The translations under genes and the position numbers were made by a program. A DNA stretch of 64,000 bases from Parcubacteria group bacterium Gr01-1014_31 (GTDB lineage: Bacteria > Patescibacteriota > Patescibacteriia > Buchananbacterales > GWA2-38-13): positions 156,870 to 220,869 of the forward strand of contig VMFR01000002.1 in NCBI GenBank assembly GCA_007376135.1, written 5' to 3'. The notes beneath the pieces were generated by a model. The model ran no database searches, was not told the DNA's origin, and saw nothing but the letters and a program-made list of their open reading frames with translations. Below, piece after piece: positions 4,962 through 48,971 of this stretch (position 1 is its first letter; each line of letters begins with the position of its first letter).

Positions 4962-5128
4962 ACTCGCCCCGTTGAACAAATTTAATAGCTACTCTGGTAG
5001 CCGCCTTCTCGTTGCGATACTATGAATACTGTGTTATCGTTCCATTCTTGTTGTCCCGGCGCACGTATTTTGTACAACGGGGTTATGATGGTAGAGTACG
5101 GTACTTATTCCTTGGATGCAACCGCACT

Positions 5129-5632
5129 ATGGTAGCAGAAAAACGGCAGACCATCGACCAACTGGCGAAGGTCGTTGCCGACCTCAAACGCGCGGGCAAG
5201 ACCGTCGTGACGACCAACGGCGTATATGACGTGCTGCATGTGGGTCACGTCCGGCTACTGGAGCAGGCAAAAAATCTGGGCGACGCGCTGGTGGTGCTGC
5301 TAAACTCCGACCGCTCCACGCGCGAGCTGAAGGGCGAAAAGCGCCCCATTGTTCCCGAGGACGAACGGGCGGAAATGGTGGCCGCGCTCGGGTGTGTGGA
5401 TTACGTCGCGATTTTTGACGACCTGCGGCCGGACGCGGCGCTGGGAAAACTCGCGCCGCAGGTGCACGTGAAAGGCGGCGACTACACGCCCGCCCAGATC
5501 CAGCCGGGCGAACGCGCGACCATTGAAGGCGGCGGCGGCAAGGTCGTCGTACTCCCGTTGACCCCCGGCCGGTCGGTGAGCGACCTGGTGGAAAAGATCC
5601 TGGCCACGGCGCCCCGAAAAGTAAAAAGTTAA
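5129..5632 (+). CDS. HldE-domain-II-like nucleotidyltransferase (heptose-1-phosphate adenylyltransferase-like), second paralog
   Basis: NGVYDVLHVGHVRLL HxGH motif, LNSDRSTRELKGEKRPIVPEDER and VHVKGGDYTP. ATG at 5129 inside ORF 5012..5632. Confidence 0.75.
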   Translation: MVAEKRQTIDQLAKVVADLKRAGKTVVTTNGVYDVLHVGHVRLLEQAKNLGDALVVLLNSDRSTRELKGEKRPIVPEDERAEMVAALGCVDYVAIFDDLRPDAALGKLAPQVHVKGGDYTPAQIQPGERATIEGGGGKVVVLPLTPGRSVSDLVEKILATAPRKVKS

Positions 5633-9330: not shown

Positions 9331-9700
9331 GGGAGCGTTTAAAATCGCTAACGTTCACAACCGGCGCCTAACTGTTTCCACAGCTCCCGACCGCGACGGA
9401 TTGCGGTGCAGGAAAAACAGTGGCATCTGATAGCGGAGACCGTGGCGTAACTGCCAAACCCTCCGCCGCCCTATCAGGTTCCTCTGTTTTTTCTTCACCC
9501 AAAATGGTGAAGGAAAACGGACGTTGACAACTGAAACGTGGTAGGAACAACCACTGTTGTCCCGCTTCGGCGGGGCAACAGCCTACAGTCAATTCCTTTT
9601 TTGTCGGCTCCCATCGGGGGCCGGCAGAGGCTGGTTTCTGAAGCTATCTTTCAGCCTGCTTCGCCACTCGGCGAAGCTATCAATAAAAGAGCTTTCACTT

Positions 9701-11190
<1,490 letters not shown>

Positions 11191-11345: not shown

Positions 11346-12263
11346 GTTTTTGGCGTCTTTTAGAATGTCTTTTTGGTACCTTTCTAAGAAAGGTACCCCC
11401 AAAGTCGCGCCCCGTGTTCGGAAAGTAGAAAAAATCAGGCTCGCTCGTCGTAAAATCGCTATGCGCAAGATTTGCCGCGCCCCGGGGACGGACAGGCGCC
11501 AGACGTTTTTTGGCAGCAGCATCCAGGACGCCGCGCTGATACGATAGCCGGAAGCCTTGCGGGTCAACCCTGACGTTTCTAGTCGCCGGGCAATTTCCGC
11601 GCGGGTGTAGTACTTCAGCACGTTGGGCGGACGCCTGCCGCTGAGCGCATTGAGCGCGCGCGTGGGCCAGAACGCCGGGCAGTACCGGTTGGGGAACGAT
11701 GCGTCAAAGATGAACGCACCGCCCGGTTTCAGCACGCGGGCAATTTCGTGCAGTGTCCGCTGGACAAACTGCTTGCCCATATGGAGAAAGACCGCGGAGG
11801 ACAGGCACAGGTCAACGCTGTCGTTCGGCAGGGGCAGCGCGTCTGCCGAACCGCAGATGAGGGAATACTGGGCGCTGGGGAAGATGGCGAAGGCCGCGCG
11901 GTAGCGCAAAAAATGCCGCAGCATAGTTTCGGCGATATCCACCCCGAAGTAGCGGTCGCAGGTCAGCTTCTTTTCGCGGGAAAGGTAGAGCGGGATGCGC
12001 CCGTAGCCGCAGCCGATCTCCAGCACGGTGCCGATGTGCTGGTCGGACGGAAAGCGCTGCCACACCTCCCCTATTTTTCCCGCCAGCGTGGCAAAGTCCT
12101 CTCGGCCGTCGCCGGTTGTGGCGATAGCCGACCGCACGTGGTCGAAAGCTGCTTCCTGTTCCCACTGCTGCCGGTAGGCGGACACGGGCGCGCCGTCGCG
12201 GGGGAAGTAGATGCCGTCGCGAGTAGTCCAATCGTTGAGCAAAGCGTTGGCCATGTTGCTCAT
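11340..12263 (-). CDS. Class I SAM-dependent methyltransferase
   Basis: Motif I LEIGCGYGR and motif post-I VDIAE. Start set at MSNMANALL (cat at 12261-12263); the longer ORF to 12926 is upstream read-through. Confidence 0.7.
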   Translation of the reverse strand: MSNMANALLNDWTTRDGIYFPRDGAPVSAYRQQWEQEAAFDHVRSAIATTGDGREDFATLAGKIGEVWQRFPSDQHIGTVLEIGCGYGRIPLYLSREKKLTCDRYFGVDIAETMLRHFLRYRAAFAIFPSAQYSLICGSADALPLPNDSVDLCLSSAVFLHMGKQFVQRTLHEIARVLKPGGAFIFDASFPNRYCPAFWPTRALNALSGRRPPNVLKYYTRAEIARRLETSGLTRKASGYRISAASWMLLPKNVWRLSVPGARQILRIAILRRASLIFSTFRTRGATLGVPFLERYQKDILKDAKNI

Positions 12264-13733: not shown

Positions 13734-13868
13734 TAATTTTATTTTATGTGGGATTTTATTCGGAGCATGAAATATTATATTTTAGGTCTCTGATGGTTCG
13801 ATTGAAATTGAAGATTTTGGAAGAATTGATAGTAACTCTGTTCAGATGGTTGAGAAAATAAAGGATTT

Positions 13869-14456
13869 ATGATTTCCTATTCGATTCCAAAATCTCCTAG
13901 TGATAATTTATTCAATAAAAAGGATGGGAAGAAGACTCCCATTGTATCAATATTATCTTTATTGGTTTCTTTTGGAACCCTAGTTTTTGTTTTTTATAAC
14001 TATTTTTTTCTTGAGCGTGCACAAATAGGTTTAAAAGATTATAAAGTAATTAGAATGGATGATGAGGGGAAAACCAGGTACCAGATAACTTATAAATTAT
14101 CAAATTATGGGAAAGTATCGGCCAGCGATGTGTCATTTAAAATATACGCAATGACTATTAATGATGATAGCTTTAAAAAAATGATATGGTCAGATAGTAT
14201 AGTCAGCATCGTTGTCCCCGGGGCAGATTTCCCTTTTGGTGTAGATACCTTGGACTTCAGCCCAGATAACCTTGGGAAGAGCATGGCGCTGATTTTTGAT
14301 TTTGAATTCAATGATACGATGTTTTCCAGAAGAAAATCGCAGTTGTGGTTTAGGTATCAGGCAGGAACTGTGGGGGACAACGTGTTATTTTATTTACTTG
14401 AGAGTGAACGAGATAAAATTATGGAAAAATATAAAGAATTAAAGACCACACAGTAG
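13869..14456 (+). CDS. Hypothetical membrane-anchored protein encoded in a low-GC island
   Basis: AT-rich codon usage in an otherwise 65% GC window, with an N-terminal TM helix. No recognizable domain. Confidence 0.5.
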   Translation: MISYSIPKSPSDNLFNKKDGKKTPIVSILSLLVSFGTLVFVFYNYFFLERAQIGLKDYKVIRMDDEGKTRYQITYKLSNYGKVSASDVSFKIYAMTINDDSFKKMIWSDSIVSIVVPGADFPFGVDTLDFSPDNLGKSMALIFDFEFNDTMFSRRKSQLWFRYQAGTVGDNVLFYLLESERDKIMEKYKELKTTQ

Positions 14457-14547
14457 TAAATCATTGAAATAGTTCCAGCCGTTTGACTCCCCCAACTGTC
14501 CAGTAGTACGTTGCAACCGTGAGGGGTTAATACCTAATTTTCGTCTT

Positions 14548-15261
14548 ATGCGTCCCACAACAAAACGGCGAGCCGTGGTTATCTCGCTAGTAGCAGGGCT
14601 ATCAGTTGGTACTTTCGCCCTCGCGTCGCACCTCTCCGTTGAAGCGGAGAAGTTTTTTCAAAAAACCTGTACCCGATTAGATATAAAGGGTATTAACGCC
14701 TTTGTTTGCGATTTGCGCGAGAGACTCGACGCGCTCACCGTCCGCGTCGACAACATTCCCGCCGGCCCGCAAGGCGAACCGGGTCCCGCCGGATCACCAG
14801 GGCCGCAGGGACCCGCGGGTGCTGGACTTGTTGTGAAAGATGTCAACGACGTCGTTATTGGTCCTCTCGTCCAAATTGAAAATAATCAACTTCTCATTTG
14901 GAAACCGAGTATCCAAAGAGTGATTGAGCTTAACCCGGTTCTTGAAGAAACAACGGTCTTACATTCATTTGGTGTTGTACTTAGTTACGAGTCTAATGAT
15001 TGTACGGGAAACCCGGTGTGGGGCGAGGGGGCGATTCTCCGCGCCGACTATGATGTAGCGAATCCTCCAAGCCAGGAAGGGTGGACCAAAATGCATGCTA
15101 CCGATATCGTTGTGCAGGTTATTGTTAATAGTGAATGGAATAATGTGAGTCGAACCTGCACCGCAGTCCCTGGAAAAATTCTTGGAACAGCTGGGTTGAT
15201 GGTTGAAGGACCATTCGGTGGGGTGCCATATACCGGTCCACTTAAAATTGTTGAGGAATAA
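14548..15261 (+). CDS. Collagen-like triple-helix repeat protein (signal-anchored, Gly-X-Y run, C-terminal globular domain)
   Basis: GPQGEPGPAGSPGPQGPAGAG G-X-Y repeats and an N-terminal hydrophobic segment. Low GC. Confidence 0.6.
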   Translation: MRPTTKRRAVVISLVAGLSVGTFALASHLSVEAEKFFQKTCTRLDIKGINAFVCDLRERLDALTVRVDNIPAGPQGEPGPAGSPGPQGPAGAGLVVKDVNDVVIGPLVQIENNQLLIWKPSIQRVIELNPVLEETTVLHSFGVVLSYESNDCTGNPVWGEGAILRADYDVANPPSQEGWTKMHATDIVVQVIVNSEWNNVSRTCTAVPGKILGTAGLMVEGPFGGVPYTGPLKIVEE

Positions 15262-23818: not shown

Positions 23819-24055
23819 GCTCCTATCCATACATAGCAATTGTACGGAGGGGAGTTGCAGCTGGTCAATGCGGCGGTGACGTTGACAGTCTGCGGATTTT
23901 ATGGAATGATGAGTGAACATTTTTCCCGCTTGAAGTTGTTCCGCTGACCCTGCTATAGTGCAGGCGTTCCCGTTTTTCCGGCAGTGGCTGTGGTGGTGTG
24001 TCCTCTTCGAATGACGGGACGATTCCCTCTTTGTTATTTTTTTGCATCCTTTGGT

Positions 24056-24113
24056 GGGCGCGTAGCTCAGTTGGTTATCCCGCCCCACGGCGGGACAGGG
24101 AGCGCGTCACTGA
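24056..24113 (+). pseudogene. 5' portion (tRNA positions 1-35) of an interrupted second tRNA-Ile copy, with a 20-22-nt GC hairpin inserted in the D-loop
   Basis: gggcgcgtagctcagttggtta + [tcccgccccacggcgggacagg] + gagcgcgtcactga. With the insert removed it is identical to positions 1-35 of the intact tRNA-Ile 70 bp downstream. Confidence 0.7.
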
Positions 24114-24182
24114 CCCGCCTGCCGGAGTACGGAGTCTTTAATAATGTAATATCTATTCCCCATTCCATCGTTTGTTGCTGTT

Positions 24183-24259
24183 GGGCGCGTAGCTCAGTTG
24201 GTTAGAGCGCGTCACTGATAATGACGAGGTCCCTGGTTCGACTCCAGGCGCGCCCACCA
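24183..24259 (+). tRNA. tRNA-Ile (anticodon GAT), CCA encoded
   Basis: Cloverleaf gggcgcg/cgcgccc acceptor, anticodon loop cTGATaa, T-loop ttcgact, discriminator A + CCA. Confidence 0.85.
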
Positions 24260-24296
24260 GCAGCACGTGATGGGGTGACTCCGTACGGCGGGCAGG

Positions 24297-24359
24297 TAAT
24301 GACGAGGTCCCTGGTTTTTACCCCGTCGAATGGCGGGGCGACTCCAGGCGCGCCCACCA
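24297..24359 (+). pseudogene. 3' portion (positions 36-76) of the interrupted tRNA-Ile copy, with a 22-nt GC hairpin inserted in the T-loop
   Basis: taatgacgaggtccctggtt + [tttaccccgtcgaatggcgggg] + cgactccaggcgcgcccacca. Identical to the intact gene once the insert is removed. Confidence 0.7.
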
Positions 24360-24401
24360 AAGGATGCAAGTTTTCGAGTTCGTCCTTGTCCTACAATTAT
24401 T

Positions 24402-30936: not shown

Positions 30937-31086
30937 AGTTTTCTCATTATACGGATTTGCCCCCGTCGCGGGCAAGCGCCCCTTGCCGCGGACGGTTTCG
31001 GGGTGTACCATAGGCGCTACCATCCACGTGCGAAGACTCGTGCTTTCTCCCGCCTACTAATTTTATAGGTATCTCCTCGTGCGAGA

Positions 31087-31157
31087 GCGGGTATTGTATA
31101 ATGGCATTACCTCAGCTTTCCAAGCTGATGACGCGGGTTCGATTCCCGCTACCCGCT
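31087..31157 (+). tRNA. tRNA-Gly (anticodon TCC), CCA not encoded
   Basis: Acceptor gcgggta/tacccgc, anticodon arm tcagc-ttTCCaa-gctga, T-arm gcggg-ttcgatt-cccgc. The D-stem has one U-U mismatch, so the parse is moderately confident. Confidence 0.7.
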
Positions 31158-31202
31158 CTCGCACGAGGAAAGGAAGGTAGGCGGGATCCCGCCCGCGGCG
31201 AG

Positions 31203-35897: not shown

Positions 35898-36108
35898 TCT
35901 CCATTAGTGCCAGAAAATGCCGCGGTCTTCCGCGGCATTTTTGGTCCCCGTGGCTTGAAAAGCGGTATTTACGGTGGTACGCTGGGGCGTACCAAGTGTT
36001 TGGGCGCGTTTTGCCCCGCAAGGGAAGACCGCCAGTCGAGGAGCTGTCCATTCAACCTTTTACATCATGTCTTTGTCGCGGTGGTGGGCAACATTTTGAC
36101 CCCATTGA

Positions 36109-36136
36109 GGCCAGGTAGCCAAGTGGTAAGGCAACG
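36109..36136 (+). pseudogene. Isolated copy of tRNA-Cys positions 1-29 (5' fragment)
   Basis: ggccaggtagccaagtggtaaggcaacg is identical to the first 28 nt of the intact tRNA-Cys 54 bp downstream. Confidence 0.65.
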
Positions 36137-36189
36137 CGGCGTCACGCGTTAAAAATTTCTTTTCGTAGAGTCGCTTTTGGCGGCAGGGA

Positions 36190-36261
36190 GGCCAGGTAGC
36201 CAAGTGGTAAGGCAACGGTCTGCAAAACCGTTATTCACGGGTTCGATTCCCGTCCTGGCCT
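36190..36261 (+). tRNA. tRNA-Cys (anticodon GCA), CCA not encoded
   Basis: Acceptor ggccagg/cctggcc, anticodon arm acggt-cTGCAaa-accgt, T-arm acggg-ttcgatt-cccgt. Confidence 0.8.
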
Positions 36262-36295
36262 CCTTGCCGCCAACTTCGTTGTTGCGTATTGATGG

Positions 36296-36360
36296 ACGGG
36301 TTTCCCGCCTCCGAAATATTTTTTTAAGAAAGGAAGGCGGGACCCCGCCAACGGCGGTGG
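36296..36360 (+). repeat. Copy B of the ~80-bp hairpin repeat (gggtttcccgcc / AT core / ggcgggacc / ccgccaacggcgg)
   Basis: Block-for-block homology with 26799-26875. Abuts the tRNA-Cys 3' fragment. Confidence 0.65.
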
Positions 36361-36379
36361 CGATTCCCGTCCTGGCCTC
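36361..36379 (+). pseudogene. Isolated copy of the tRNA-Cys 3' end (T-loop position 56 to acceptor end)
   Basis: cgattcccgtcctggcctc is identical to the 3' 19 nt of the intact tRNA-Cys and starts exactly at T-loop position 56. Confidence 0.65.
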
Positions 36380-36507
36380 GGTGCGGTCAATCGCGGTCGC
36401 GGTTCGTGTAGGGGTTGGTCGGTCCTCAGTCTTGGAGGGCCGATTTTTATGTCAGGCTTGCGAAAAATGCCGTTTTCTGATATTCTCAAGCAGTCTTTAC
36501 GACCCCT

Positions 36508-38492: not shown

Positions 38493-38849
38493 GTGTCGTC
38501 CCATCGGGTCGCCCAAATCAGTGAACAGCTGCGGCGCGAACTCGGGCCGATTTTGGCGCAGGCCATTGAACTGCCCCCCGGGGTGCTCGTGACCGTCACG
38601 GCGGTGGATGTCGCCGCGGACCTGCAGAATGCCACCGTCTGGGTGAGTGTGCTGCCCGGCGGCGACCACGACCACGTGGTTCGCGTATTACAGCGGCAGG
38701 CTCGCGTGCTGCACGCCGCGTTGTTTTCCGCCGTCCGCTTCCGGCCCGTGCCGGCGCTGCACTTCCGTTATGATATTACTGAGGCCAAGGCGGCCGATGT
38801 CGAGGCGCTCCTGGATCGCCTGGAGCAAGATCCCGCTGAGCACCCTTGA
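38493..38849 (+). CDS. rbfA: Ribosome-binding factor A
   Basis: RVAQISEQLRRELGPIL...ATVWVSVL...RFRPVPALHFRYD is an RbfA-like KH fold. GTG start 9 bp after the infB stop; infB-rbfA synteny. Confidence 0.75.
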   Translation: MSSHRVAQISEQLRRELGPILAQAIELPPGVLVTVTAVDVAADLQNATVWVSVLPGGDHDHVVRVLQRQARVLHAALFSAVRFRPVPALHFRYDITEAKAADVEALLDRLEQDPAEHP

Positions 38850-38885
38850 CGAACGCGGCCCGGCAGGCTAGACTGCCGGGCTATG

Positions 38886-38989
38886 CTCCGTAGGACAACG
38901 GACAAAAACAGTTCGCAGGTTTTTCCTGGCGCGGTTTCCTCCGGGCATGATTTTGGTGCCCGTTCGGGTTAAACCGTTGTCCTCCGGGG
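38886..38989. repeat. Intergenic element R1: 14-16-bp terminal inverted repeat (ccgtaggacaacgg ... ccgttgtcctccgggg) enclosing a ~72-bp core; abuts the nrnA start codon
   Basis: Same TIR as 40748-40851 and 48858-48971, with unrelated internal sequence. Confidence 0.65.
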
Positions 38990-38990
38990 T

Positions 38991-39953
38991 ATGCAATTTG
39001 AATTTTCCCCGCAGCAGCTAGACGCGCAGTTCGCGCGCGTCCGAACGGCGGTTCTGGTCGGCCACATTCAGCCGGACGCCGATTGCCTGGGTTCGCTGAC
39101 CGCGTTTGCACCCTATCTAGAGAGCCGCGGTTGCGCCGTTACTCTCTACTGCGCCACCCCGGCGCCCGCCCGCCTCCAGTTTCTGCCTGGGGTAAGCCGG
39201 TTGCGGACCACGGCGCCTGGACCCTACGACGCGGTGGTGGTGCTGGACTGCGGCGACCTGAAACACGCCTGCGTGACCCCCGCGCAGCTGGCGCATTGGT
39301 CCCCGCGGCTGGTGGTCAATATCGACCACCACCAGACCAACACGCGGTACGGCGACATCAACCTGGTGCAGCCGACCGCTGCCTCTGCGACTGAGATCCT
39401 CTACCACTATTTCCGCGCTTTGGATTTTTTGGTCACGCCGCAGGTTGCCACCTCGCTCCTGGCGGGCATCGTCGGCGATACCGGCGGTTTTTACCACTCC
39501 AATACCTCACCTGCCGTGCTGAACGCCGCGGCCGAGTTGGTCGCCGCCGGTGCGTCGTTGCCGGCGCTGTTCTCCATCGCCTTTGGCGACAAGACCGTGC
39601 CGGCGCTGCAGCGCTGGGGTCCGGTGCTGTCGCGGATCACCATACACCCGCGCTACCAGGTGGCGCTGGCGGTCATCACCCGTGCCGATCTTTCCGGCTT
39701 GCCGGATGAGGCGGCGGCCGCCTCGGGGATGGCGAATTTTCTCAATACGCTGGATGGCGTGCGGGCGGTGGTCGTGCTGGTGGAACAGGCGGACGGCACC
39801 ATCCGCGGCAGCCTTCGCGCACGTGATCCCTTGCTGGACGTGGCGAAGTTCGCTACGCTGTGTGGTGGCGGCGGCCATAAACTTGCGGCAGGGTTTGCCA
39901 TCAAGGGGAGGCTGCAGGAAACGCCGCAGGGGTGGAAAGTTGTGGCCGGATAA
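38991..39953 (+). CDS. nrnA: DHH/DHHA1-family phosphoesterase (NrnA-like oligoribonuclease / pAp phosphatase)
   Basis: DHH motifs (HIQPDADCLGS, VNIDHHQTN) and DHHA1 GGGH. Confidence 0.8.
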   Translation: MQFEFSPQQLDAQFARVRTAVLVGHIQPDADCLGSLTAFAPYLESRGCAVTLYCATPAPARLQFLPGVSRLRTTAPGPYDAVVVLDCGDLKHACVTPAQLAHWSPRLVVNIDHHQTNTRYGDINLVQPTAASATEILYHYFRALDFLVTPQVATSLLAGIVGDTGGFYHSNTSPAVLNAAAELVAAGASLPALFSIAFGDKTVPALQRWGPVLSRITIHPRYQVALAVITRADLSGLPDEAAAASGMANFLNTLDGVRAVVVLVEQADGTIRGSLRARDPLLDVAKFATLCGGGGHKLAAGFAIKGRLQETPQGWKVVAG

Positions 39954-39954
39954 A

Positions 39955-40107
39955 TCGTAAATTTTAAATTACAAATTTTCAATTTTCATTGAATTATTAA
40001 TGACTTAATTTTTAAACATCGTGTCGACGCTCGGATCTAATCATTGGAAATTGAAAATTGTACCATTGATTGTAAATTAGAAATTGTGAATTAATAATTT
40101 TAGCCTT
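39955..40107 (+). promoter_or_regulatory. AT-rich (>75% AT) intergenic region upstream of clpP with reiterated gaaattg/aaattg motifs; probable promoter/operator region
   Basis: Sharp compositional drop and repeated aaatt(g/t) units immediately 5' of clpP. Confidence 0.4.
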
Positions 40108-40683: not shown

Positions 40684-40747
40684 GCGCTCCCCGCCCGGTA
40701 TATCCGCCACTTCCCGCCGCCTCCCCTTTCGGAGACGGCGTTGGCTT

Positions 40748-40851
40748 GCCCCGTAGGACAATGGAATCTTGAGAACGGTTGGGAGGCTTACGTTCTCATG
40801 CATTTCCATGAACAGGCTATCAAAACGGCATCAACCGTTGTCCTACGGGGC
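40748..40851. repeat. Intergenic element R2: TIR gccccgtaggacaatgg ... ccgttgtcctacggggc enclosing a ~70-bp core
   Basis: See R1; located between clpP and rny. Confidence 0.65.
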
Positions 40852-41113
40852 TTGTCAAGGGAATCATTTTGTGGTACGTTAGGGCCACGTATTGCAATTA
40901 ACTACGACGTTTGAGGGTGACCCGTGAGCGTTCTGATTTTCTCCATGTTGCATAGCCTGCTTGAACACTCTGGAATCGCCGACAGTGCCGTTTGGCCTGC
41001 CGCCGGTTTCACGTTCACCGCGGCGTTCTTGCCCAGGTAAATCAGGCCCAAACCGCCGCGCCTGCGGGCGCGGACTTCGCTCCGGCCGTCCCCCTCGCCG
41101 TTGGACGGACACT

Positions 41114-43965: not shown

Positions 43966-43982
43966 TTGGTATGGCGAAAAAT

Positions 43983-44022
43983 AAAAACGTTCACCTGGCG
44001 GTGAACATCTTTCTGGTGCGCC
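43983..44022 (-). repeat. Distal copy of a 40-bp direct repeat (minus-strand terminator hairpin plus the last 9 nt of the tRNA-Lys 3' end), followed by a degenerate tRNA-like sequence with hairpin inserts
   Basis: aaaaacgttcacctggcggtgaacatctttctggtgcgcc is identical to 44188-44227. Confidence 0.6.
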
Positions 44023-44187
44023 TAGAGAGGATCGAAGTCGGTCCGATGCCCATCGGACCTCCCCATAGGGGCTTCCGCCCCTCTGGTGCTCGCTGCGCTC
44101 GCGGTCACCCCCGGCAATGCGGGGGAGTTTTTCCTCCCCCGCCACCCCCACGTTCGATTCCCTGGCGGATAAACATTGTTAATAAAG

Positions 44188-44227
44188 AAAAACGTTCACC
44201 TGGCGGTGAACATCTTTCTGGTGCGCC
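44188..44227 (-). repeat. Proximal copy of the 40-bp repeat: functional terminator (gttcaccgccaggtgaac + T-run on minus strand) plus the tRNA-Lys 3' end
   Basis: Identical to 43983-44022. Confidence 0.6.
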
Positions 44228-44294
44228 CAGAGGGAATCGAACCCCCAACCGTTGGCTTAAGAGGCCACTGCTCTGCCAATTGAGCTATGGGCGC
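44219..44294 (-). tRNA. tRNA-Lys (anticodon CTT), CCA encoded
   Basis: Reverse complement: gcgccca...anticodon loop cTCTTaa...ggttcgattccc...tgggcgc a cca. Confidence 0.8.
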
Positions 44295-48776: not shown

Positions 48777-48857
48777 GGGAAATTCTCCTTAATCATCCGT
48801 CGCCCCGCGAGATCAGGGGAGCAGATTACCGTAGTATAGACAGATTTTGTTGGATTT

Positions 48858-48971
48858 GGCAAGCCCCGTAGGACAACGGTCGATGCCATTATGGATGGGC
48901 CTCTGGTAGTGCCGGGCGGACCGCGGAGGTTCCCTGTCTCCGGAAGTCCGTTGTCCTACGGGGCAAGCCCC
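48858..48971. repeat. Intergenic element R3: TIR ggcaagccccgtaggacaacgg ... ccgttgtcctacggggcaagcccc enclosing a ~68-bp core; lies between gyrA and rpmF
   Basis: See R1 and R2. Confidence 0.65.

Follow-up and report, generated by a model that had tools for sequence, protein, structure and literature searches.

The 64,000-nt stretch of Parcubacteria group bacterium Gr01-1014_31 analyzed here (contig VMFR01000002.1, positions 156,870 to 220,869; referred to as the window) contains three short intergenic elements, each of which consists of near-identical terminal inverted repeats (the arms) around an interior (the core) that differs from copy to copy. With a probability of roughly 0.8, these elements are copies of a family of miniature inverted-repeat transposable elements (MITEs) of the Patescibacteria that is mobilized in trans by a putative DDE-type transposase. 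That the elements possess MITE ends is evident from their common termini, the target duplications flanking them, the uninterrupted sites found in relatives, the recent gain of copy 3, and a wider family with the same ends. Homologs of RNase Y place the window in the Patescibacteria, near Candidatus Buchananbacteria. The family appears to be undescribed, a new one of the well-known MITE kind; full-text literature searches on Patescibacteria or the Candidate Phyla Radiation with MITEs or inverted repeats gave nothing relevant, and a search with the terminal sequence returned primers only.

In copies 1 to 3, which are 100-104 nt long, the arm is a 16-nt terminal inverted repeat, CCCCGTAGGACAAYGG, with its reverse complement, and 14-16 of the 16 positions are complementary from arm to arm (Table 1). 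The elements share an asymmetry, with ...YGGA(C/A) at one end and (R)ACCGTTG... at the other, so that an orientation can be defined. None of them has coding capacity for a transposase, the sole reading frame being an accidental 29-codon open reading frame (ORF) of copy 1. The local order is infB-rbfA-(copy 1)-nrnA-clpP-(copy 2)-rny-ymdB-hup and, further on, T2SSE-rnc-nusB-rpmF-(copy 3)-gyrA, the last block lying on the minus strand. A first-pass annotation of the sequence had reported three copies with near-identical arms and dissimilar interiors of similar length, located between rbfA and nrnA, clpP and rny, and gyrA and rpmF, and our coordinates and gene tables agree with this, including the single nucleotide between the right end of copy 1 and the ATG of nrnA. 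For copy 3 the reported location stood, but its limits (48858-48971) had to be narrowed because they included the flanking duplicated target. When the window was searched with the 14-mer CCGTAGGACAAYGG at ≤2 mismatches, 8 matches were obtained compared to 0.75 expected, a number reached in 0/100 shuffles. Six of these matches are the three arm pairs; the remaining two (16599 and 25721) stand alone, have 2 mismatches each, and are no more than chance would give. The arms always occur in pairs; in the window and in the loci fetched from other assemblies (designated by L numbers), no unpaired arm was found except one that is cut off by the end of its locus.

Table 1. Positions of the elements and of predicted promoters. 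Coordinates are those of the window except for the fifth member.
Feature	Position	Strand	Length (nt)	Arms	Core (nt)	Flanking 4-bp duplication	Location or remark
Copy 1	38886..38989	+	104	CTCCGTAGGACAACGG (38886-38901); CCGTTGTCCTCCGGGG (38974-38989)	72	TATG; left 38882..38885, right 38990-38993 (contains nrnA start codon)	between nrnA promoter and nrnA ATG
Copy 2	40749..40850	+	102	CCCCGTAGGACAATGG (40749-40764); CCGTTGTCCTACGGGG (40835-40850)	70	CTTG; left 40745..40748, right 40851-40854	between clpP and rny promoter
Copy 3	48864..48963	-	100	perfect 16-nt arms (48864-48879; 48948-48963)	68	CAAG (minus strand CTTG); 48860..48863 and 48964-48967	between gyrA stop codon and rpmF-nusB-rnc promoter
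Fourth member, diverged	4967..5082		116	CCCCGTTGAACAAA; TTTGTACAACGGGG (13/14 complementary)		no intact duplication	
Fifth member	L043 2563-2665			CTCGGTAGGACAACGG; CCGTTGTACTACCGGG		TATG	same strain, ~3.9 kb upstream of window position 1
Predicted nrnA promoter	38846..38874	+					TTGACG-17-TAGACT from promoter scan; 11 nt upstream of copy 1
Predicted rpmF operon promoter	48833..48862	-					TTGCCA-18-TATACT, 10/12 matches in promoter scan; abuts copy 3

A perfect 4-bp direct repeat borders each of the three copies: TATG in the case of copy 1, CTTG in that of copy 2 and CAAG in that of copy 3. In a census of 19 elements from the window and the other loci, a perfect 4/4 duplication was present in 11, the chance being 1/256 per element; the census leaves out the copy on L043, which was found later and whose duplication is perfect too. 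When symmetrized, the target across the census reads S|YATR|S. In two relatives with the same gene order and an 87% identical RNase Y, L008 and L012, all three sites are uninterrupted, and the 4-mer is present once at each. The empty site between rbfA and nrnA reads GGC TATG CA in both, the empty site between clpP and rny reads CTTGCCAAAGC in both, and the one between gyrA and rpmF reads CTTGCA in L012 and TTTGCCA in L008. Orthologs of copy 1 are present in L003, L005, and L006. Copy 3 is missing from four contigs found via the L32 protein (L036, L037, L039, and L040) whose identity to the window is 98.6-98.9% and whose gyrA-rpmF spacer is exactly 104 nt shorter, corresponding to the 100-nt element plus the 4-nt duplication. 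The empty allele reads ...GGACAG(T/G)G CTTG CCAAATCC, and L038, which is 100% identical to the window, does contain copy 3. From its absence in such close relatives it follows that copy 3 is a recent gain and that the family has been mobile very recently. L036, which lacks copy 3, and L005, which has copies 1 and 2, share a sample of origin (ERZ28563803) and an identity of ~98-99% to the window; should they represent the same strain, then that strain lacks copy 3 while possessing copies 1 and 2. MITE ends recognized by a transposase had been listed as a possibility in the first-pass annotation, and the perfect duplications, the empty sites and the presence or absence of copy 3 at ~98.7% identity fit this proposal. 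The accompanying view that this is not a recently spread MITE does not hold for copy 3 at least, whose insertion is recent even though its core is different.

The family extends beyond these three copies. A scan of the window for CCC...GGG inverted repeats gave a diverged fourth member as the sole additional match, and in shuffled sequences 0-2 matches were obtained, none of which resembled a family arm. This member has GTTG in place of GTAG in both arms and takes up the greater part of the promoter region from which a HAD hydrolase gene (-) and a cytidylyltransferase gene (+) diverge. A fifth member from the same strain, located on the 6.4-kb leftward extension L043, ends 1 nt before the ATG of a gene for an SMC-like ATPase and carries a C-to-G change at arm position 4 that is common to both arms. 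A strict paired-arm pattern matched only one metagenome-assembled genome (MAG) among the GTDB genomes, JAUSGZ01, from which L003 derives and which contains orthologs of copies 1 and 2 as well as two further copies at other loci. The same strict pattern gave 0 matches in JGI metagenomes, viral contigs gave 0 matches, and BLAST searches of plasmids with two of the elements gave chance matches only. With the relaxed pattern CCCCGTAGGACN{60,90}GTCCTACGGGG, 20 metagenome loci were obtained. Eight loci (L019, L020, L021, L026, L027, L028, L029, and L032) were kept, and in these we count ten elements, 102-166 nt in length, that have the 13-nt end in common and mostly show matched 4-bp duplications (TATA, TGTA, TATG, CATA), on contigs of 34-54% GC. 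The 13-nt end common to the wider family is CCCCGTAGGACAA, paired with TTGTCCTACGGGG and extended by YGG in the lineage of the window. The genes flanking the checked metagenome elements are housekeeping or type IV pilus genes, which resembles the surroundings in the window, and L029, the one contig with confirmed taxonomy, belongs to the Paceibacterota. On L020 (5053-5406), three, possibly four, elements are arranged head-to-tail with 4-nt junctions TACA, TACG, and TACA; the first two cores are identical, and the third element has the same 22-nt ends around an unrelated core of equal length. Four loci (L017, L022, L031, and L035) were set aside as foldbacks within AT/AC microsatellites of eukaryotic look, and five others (L016, L018, L024, L025, and L030) as GC-rich doublets resembling true repetitive extragenic palindromic (REP) doublets, or REPINs. 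The element on L032 abuts the 3' end of an apparent tRNA gene, as read by eye; a helix-turn-helix (HTH) protein encoded beside it was rejected as a candidate mobilizer, as it gave only weak matches to transposase HTH domains. In L008 and L009, a 72-nt mini-version of the element precedes rnc, and in the case of L008 the nusB-rnc spacer is too diverged to be aligned for an empty-site comparison. Just downstream of the mini-element of L008, rnc is present as two overlapping ORFs of 147 and 109 amino acids (13838-14549), whereas L009, with an identical RNase Y, has one gene of 231 amino acids (10021-10716); the split in L008 is probably due to a frameshift or an assembly error.

In the mechanism that we propose, each copy would be made up of two 13-17-bp terminal inverted repeats around a non-coding core of ~70 nt that would be dispensable for mobility, and a transposase supplied in trans would bind both termini. 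The element would be excised or copied and integrated at a short palindromic target, 5'-S|YATR|S-3', via a 4-bp staggered cut, the repair of which would duplicate the 4-mer. Since only copies with intact ends would move, the termini would remain identical family-wide, and the cores would drift or stem from different, possibly horizontally acquired, sublineages. Because transposition demands intact termini, a family of this kind would take on the look of a conserved stem with a free loop without any function of the stem. The duplications are matched at each site yet differ from site to site, which points to a 4-bp staggered cut and therefore to a DDE-type enzyme, and we infer a cut-and-paste chemistry of the DDE type.

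Several observations weigh against this interpretation. Pfam and NCBIfam scans, which covered essentially all long ORFs at 1-30 kb of the window and the unannotated ORFs elsewhere, detected no transposase, recombinase, or integrase in the 64 kb. Nor did any gene of these three kinds turn up in ~13 kb of extra flanks or in related loci (~77 kb of the strain; gene tables of L004, L014, and L043). Window, flanks, and related loci contained no autonomous element with these termini, the scans of the collections spanning gaps of ≤600 nt. In addition, the termini carry GTAG, which is a hallmark of REP elements, and the core, which in most bacterial MITE families is presumably kept recognizably similar within a genome, is not kept so here. 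Finally, when copy 2 was compared between the window and L003, the arms were identical at 32/32 positions and the core differed at 17/69, as would be expected if arms were conserved in place; the pattern that yielded L003 demanded intact arms, which biases the comparison, and we have rejected the argument for that reason.

In the first-pass annotation, conserved stem and free loop sequence had been taken to suggest selection on the stem, with an RNase III, terminator, or attenuator structure among the candidates. A cis-acting RNA, i.e., a 16-bp stem that serves as RNase III site, 3'-end stabilizer, or attenuator and is kept by selection on the RNA, would be consistent with the very stable hairpins predicted for all copies (-52 to -64 kcal/mol, z -4.5 to -6.1, + strand), with copy 1 probably lying within the nrnA leader downstream of a predicted promoter, and with the Y/R differences in the arms that become G-U wobbles on one strand. 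Several neighbors, moreover, encode ribonucleases or other RNA-processing functions: nrnA, rny, and the rpmF-nusB-rnc operon in the window, rnc in L008, and on other contigs ybeY (L029) and an NYN-domain gene (L026). However, hairpin stability is a trivial consequence of an inverted repeat, copies 2 and 3 precede the -35 boxes of their downstream genes, close relatives possess the same operons without the elements, and what is invariant across loci and lineages is the arm sequence, beyond mere complementarity. Other copies adjoin genes that have nothing to do with RNA decay (those for an aldo-keto reductase, a sigma factor, and an S41 peptidase, as well as pilin genes), the window copies are not independent in this respect because their genes are syntenic, and the RNA-processing neighborhood may be a coincidence. 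A scan for terminators gave nothing at the ends of the elements, where CUUG.., UAUG.., or CAAG.. and not a U-tract comes after the stem, and Rfam 15, applied to the whole window at the gathering threshold, gave nothing at the elements, finding only 16S rRNA and tRNAs.

The comparisons of orthologs that are free of retrieval bias point in the same direction. As a neutral proxy, the window and L003 differ at 22.8% of four-fold degenerate sites. Between these two sequences, the arms of copy 1 differ at 4/32 positions (P = 0.12 compared to neutral) and the cores are 48% identical. Between the window and L005, the arms of copy 1 again differ at 4/32 positions while the cores are identical at 72/72, an excess of arm changes (P = 0.004), and for copy 2 the differences amount to 1/32 in the arms and 3/70 in the core. 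Four stem pairs are broken in the copy 1 orthologs and all are uncompensated. Consensus folds of the copy 1 and copy 2 orthologs contained no compensatory changes, with covariation terms of -0.32 and +1.45 kcal/mol (three sequences per site), i.e., about zero or unfavorable. Copy 1 alone is predicted to be part of a transcript leader, and, judged by its sequence, its stem is being lost. The unbiased arm comparisons and the uncompensated broken pairs thus give no evidence of host-level selection on the stem. The proposed selection on the stem in place is unsupported, nothing in the way of a U-tract, an Rfam family, or compensatory changes sustains an RNase III site, a terminator, or an attenuator, and we regard a cis-acting RNA as a very improbable explanation. 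As a note of caution, a pattern of conserved stem and free loop can result from the recognition of termini by a transposase and not from selection on RNA structure.

GTAG at arm positions 5-8, followed by the stem, raises the alternative that the elements are REP/REPIN-type sequences moved by a REP-associated tyrosine transposase (RAYT), a Y1 HUH transposase of the IS200/IS605 type, via a GTAG head and a hairpin in single-stranded DNA. The five GC-rich doublets mentioned above, which came from the 11-mer pair search, carry CCCCGTAGGAC followed by a short local hairpin and lack a duplication, as do classical REPINs, and the low copy number together with cores less conserved than the ends resembles REPIN populations, of which Bertels and Rainey reportedly gave such an account in 2011. 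Nevertheless, no arm of the window elements forms a local hairpin, the distal arm being its sole pairing partner, and no Y1 transposase was seen in any of the loci (~77 kb of genome). Variable, pairwise-matched 4-bp duplications and a single 4-mer at the empty sites argue for a staggered double-strand cut, and HUH enzymes (RAYT, IS200/IS605) are not known to make such a cut or to leave a duplication. Mobilization by a RAYT is therefore considered improbable. One inverted-repeat sequence around different interiors at several promoter-proximal sites is also the architecture of an invertible-promoter regulon, and the right arm of copies 2 and 3 is just upstream of a -35 box, so that the arms might be paired sites for a host protein, either an operator pair looping ~70 bp or the ends of a promoter switch inverted by one recombinase. 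Yet duplications and empty sites show that the elements were acquired by insertion, the orientation of the core is the same in all orthologs seen in four strains, the predicted promoters lie outside and not inside the elements, and there is no gene for a recombinase or regulator nearby; we consider such paired host sites hardly credible. A broader version of the transposon interpretation holds that the CCCCGTAGGACAA termini mark a long-lived non-autonomous system across Parcubacteria/Paceibacterota, served by an as yet unrecognized single-copy or domesticated DDE-like transposase in a partnership like that of REPINs and RAYTs, inserting preferentially at start signals of transcription and translation (the -35 box, the -10 box, or a leaderless ATG) and co-opted for the tuning of housekeeping genes including the RNA-decay genes nrnA, rny, rnc, and ybeY. 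This is unlikely in our estimation.

With the MITE interpretation in mind, the cores deserve attention. Pairs of cores are dissimilar, with z-scores of global alignments mostly <3; the best pair, copy 2 and reverse-complemented copy 3, reaches z = 3.8-3.9, and this signal resides mainly in the subterminal ~10 nt, with GGCATCRACC shared, and in a few bases at the other end. The GC content of cores ranges from 31% to 63%, compared to 61% for the window and ~55% for sampled intergenic DNA, and this spread in composition suggests different origins and residence times. The 48% identity of the copy 1 core between the window (38902-38973) and L003 (5059-5132) is far lower than the ~77% expected for neutral DNA, its divergence is patchy, and the flanks are ~95% identical. 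It is possible that different family members were inserted independently at the same preferred TATG site, or that the core was replaced by recombination between elements.

The landing sites coincide with promoter boxes and start codons. As the predicted nrnA promoter now precedes copy 1, nrnA has probably gained a 104-nt hairpin leader; in L012 the undisturbed promoter (TTGACA-17-TATACT) is separated from the ATG by 8 nt, an arrangement of the leaderless type. The 29-codon ORF begins at the duplicated ATG (38883) and ends with TAA (38970-38972), 18 nt before the true nrnA start. In the case of copy 2, the last three bases of the right duplication begin a -35-like hexamer TTGTCA (40852-40857), followed after 17 nt by TACGTT (40875-40880); this rny promoter was read by eye, as it is below the threshold of the promoter scan, and its ortholog in L012 reads TTGCCA-17-TAGACT. 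In the case of copy 3, the duplication at 48860-48863 provides the TTG of the rpmF -35 box on the minus strand. Copies 2 and 3 thus split the cTTG of a -35 box, and the duplication restores TTGTCA or TTGCCA on the gene-proximal side. Five elements (copy 1, the L043 copy, and those of L001, L027, and L028) end 1 nt upstream of an ATG, and in 4/5 the TATG duplication includes the start codon, the flanks of L001 being mismatched (CTTG and TATG in gene-downstream orientation), with the start codon only in the gene-side TATG. In L021, L029a, and L020_3, the TATA of a TATACT motif is split, and in the latter two this motif is located 8 nt before an ATG. That insertions are tolerated beside essential genes is probably explained by duplications that restore the motif. 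This pattern of landing sites could reflect a preference of the transposase for promoter DNA, or else the match of YATR to promoter and start motifs together with the purifying selection that acts on a compact genome.

The elements resemble the MITEs known as Correia (Neisseria), RUP (Streptococcus), and Nezha (cyanobacteria) in their non-coding nature, the size class of ~100-150 nt, terminal inverted repeats, and short duplications, and likewise in their multiple intergenic copies, often adjacent to promoters, that form long hairpins when transcribed and are polymorphic for presence or absence among strains. We take those families to have a recognizable core consensus in each genome and a known or strongly suspected parent insertion sequence (IS). 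In contrast, only 13-17 nt per end, with ~2-8 subterminal nt, are common to the elements described here, sequence and GC content of the core differ, the duplication is 4 bp (YATR) and not TA, and no parent IS is known. The IS1380 and piggyBac groups presumably have, according to the ISfinder tables, CC(C) ends, terminal repeats of ~13-16 bp and a 4-bp AT-centered palindromic target (TTAA for piggyBac, 4-5 bp for IS1380). The elements described here have CC(C) termini and a 4-bp duplication as well, the likeness being one of ends and duplication only; their terminal sequence is not known to match that of ISEcp1 or piggyBac. Duplications of 4 bp are also made by IS5, IS701, and ISH3. On the basis of this analogy in CC ends and 4-bp duplication, an affinity to IS1380/piggyBac-like or to IS5/IS701-like transposases is possible. 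IS1380 has been treated as the prokaryotic outgroup of piggyBac (PMC10813416). The likeness to the REPIN-RAYT system lies in intergenic hairpin elements of ~100 nt, a head containing GTAG, ends more conserved than the middle, and a terminal motif that persists across related lineages. REPINs, however, are doublets of individually palindromic REPs without target duplication, whereas the elements studied here lack local hairpins and are flanked by 4-bp duplications. Integron attC sites, too, are imperfect palindromes (57-141 nt) with conserved outer inverted core sites, a variable center, and arms of the type ...CAAC / GTTG.... An attC identity was considered and rejected: GGACAAC/GTTGTCC fit RYYYAAC/GTTRRRY at 5/7 positions, the stem is perfect and without extrahelical bases, and there is no integrase or cassette array. 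Unlike attC sites, the elements are flanked by target duplications and their neighbors are housekeeping genes with promoters of their own.

Patescibacteria have very small, streamlined genomes that are usually described as poor in mobile DNA. The present family has been active recently, and its insertions hit promoter boxes and start codons of essential genes with precision, the motif being restored by the duplication. It may be of use as a strain-level marker for uncultured organisms and as a handle toward the responsible transposase, and it amounts to a natural experiment on the tolerance of leaderless genes to a hairpin leader of 100 nt.

Further observations were made in the window and its relatives. 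Upstream of clpP (39974-40059), an AT-rich 19-nt inverted repeat, AATTTTCAATTTTCATTGA and TCATTGGAAATTGAAAATT, 48 nt apart, overlaps promoter-like sites and could serve as the operator of a heat-shock or protease regulator. Between rny and ymdB, L013 (a relative of 71% identity) encodes a 120-amino-acid protein (11637-11999) that matches 23S_rRNA_IVP and bAvd, the latter being an accessory protein of diversity-generating retroelements. A 16S rRNA gene is present at 9695-11188; as neither 23S nor 5S rRNA genes occur throughout the 64-kb window, the rRNA genes appear to be unlinked. Several tRNA genes have unusual surroundings. The tRNA-Cys gene is intact at 36190-36263, with an extra 5' half at 36107-36136 and an extra 3' end at ~36361-36380, and from its sequence the region 36107-36380 looks like an older gene split by an insert of ~220 nt that carries a replacement copy; L012 contains a similar partial tRNA duplicate at ~5320-5360. 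Perfect or near-perfect 20-21-nt inverted repeats, corresponding to the acceptor stem plus 13 bp on each side, surround tRNA-Gly (31074-31169) and tRNA-Cys (36177-36273), and a pair of inverted repeats 286 nt apart brackets tRNA-Ile (24042-24369). Pairing of leader and trailer over such a length seems unusual for tRNAs. Next to tRNA-Lys, a 58-nt repeat made up of a terminator-like hairpin and a tRNA 3' end is found at 43979-44036 and 44184-44241. In relatives (L008 9940-10070; L012 12810-12990), an extra copy of this 58-nt repeat leads into a structured, GC-rich insert that contains the hairpin CCCCGTCATYCGACGGGG, which suggests a tRNA-like gene with a large insertion or intron that is not called by ARAGORN.

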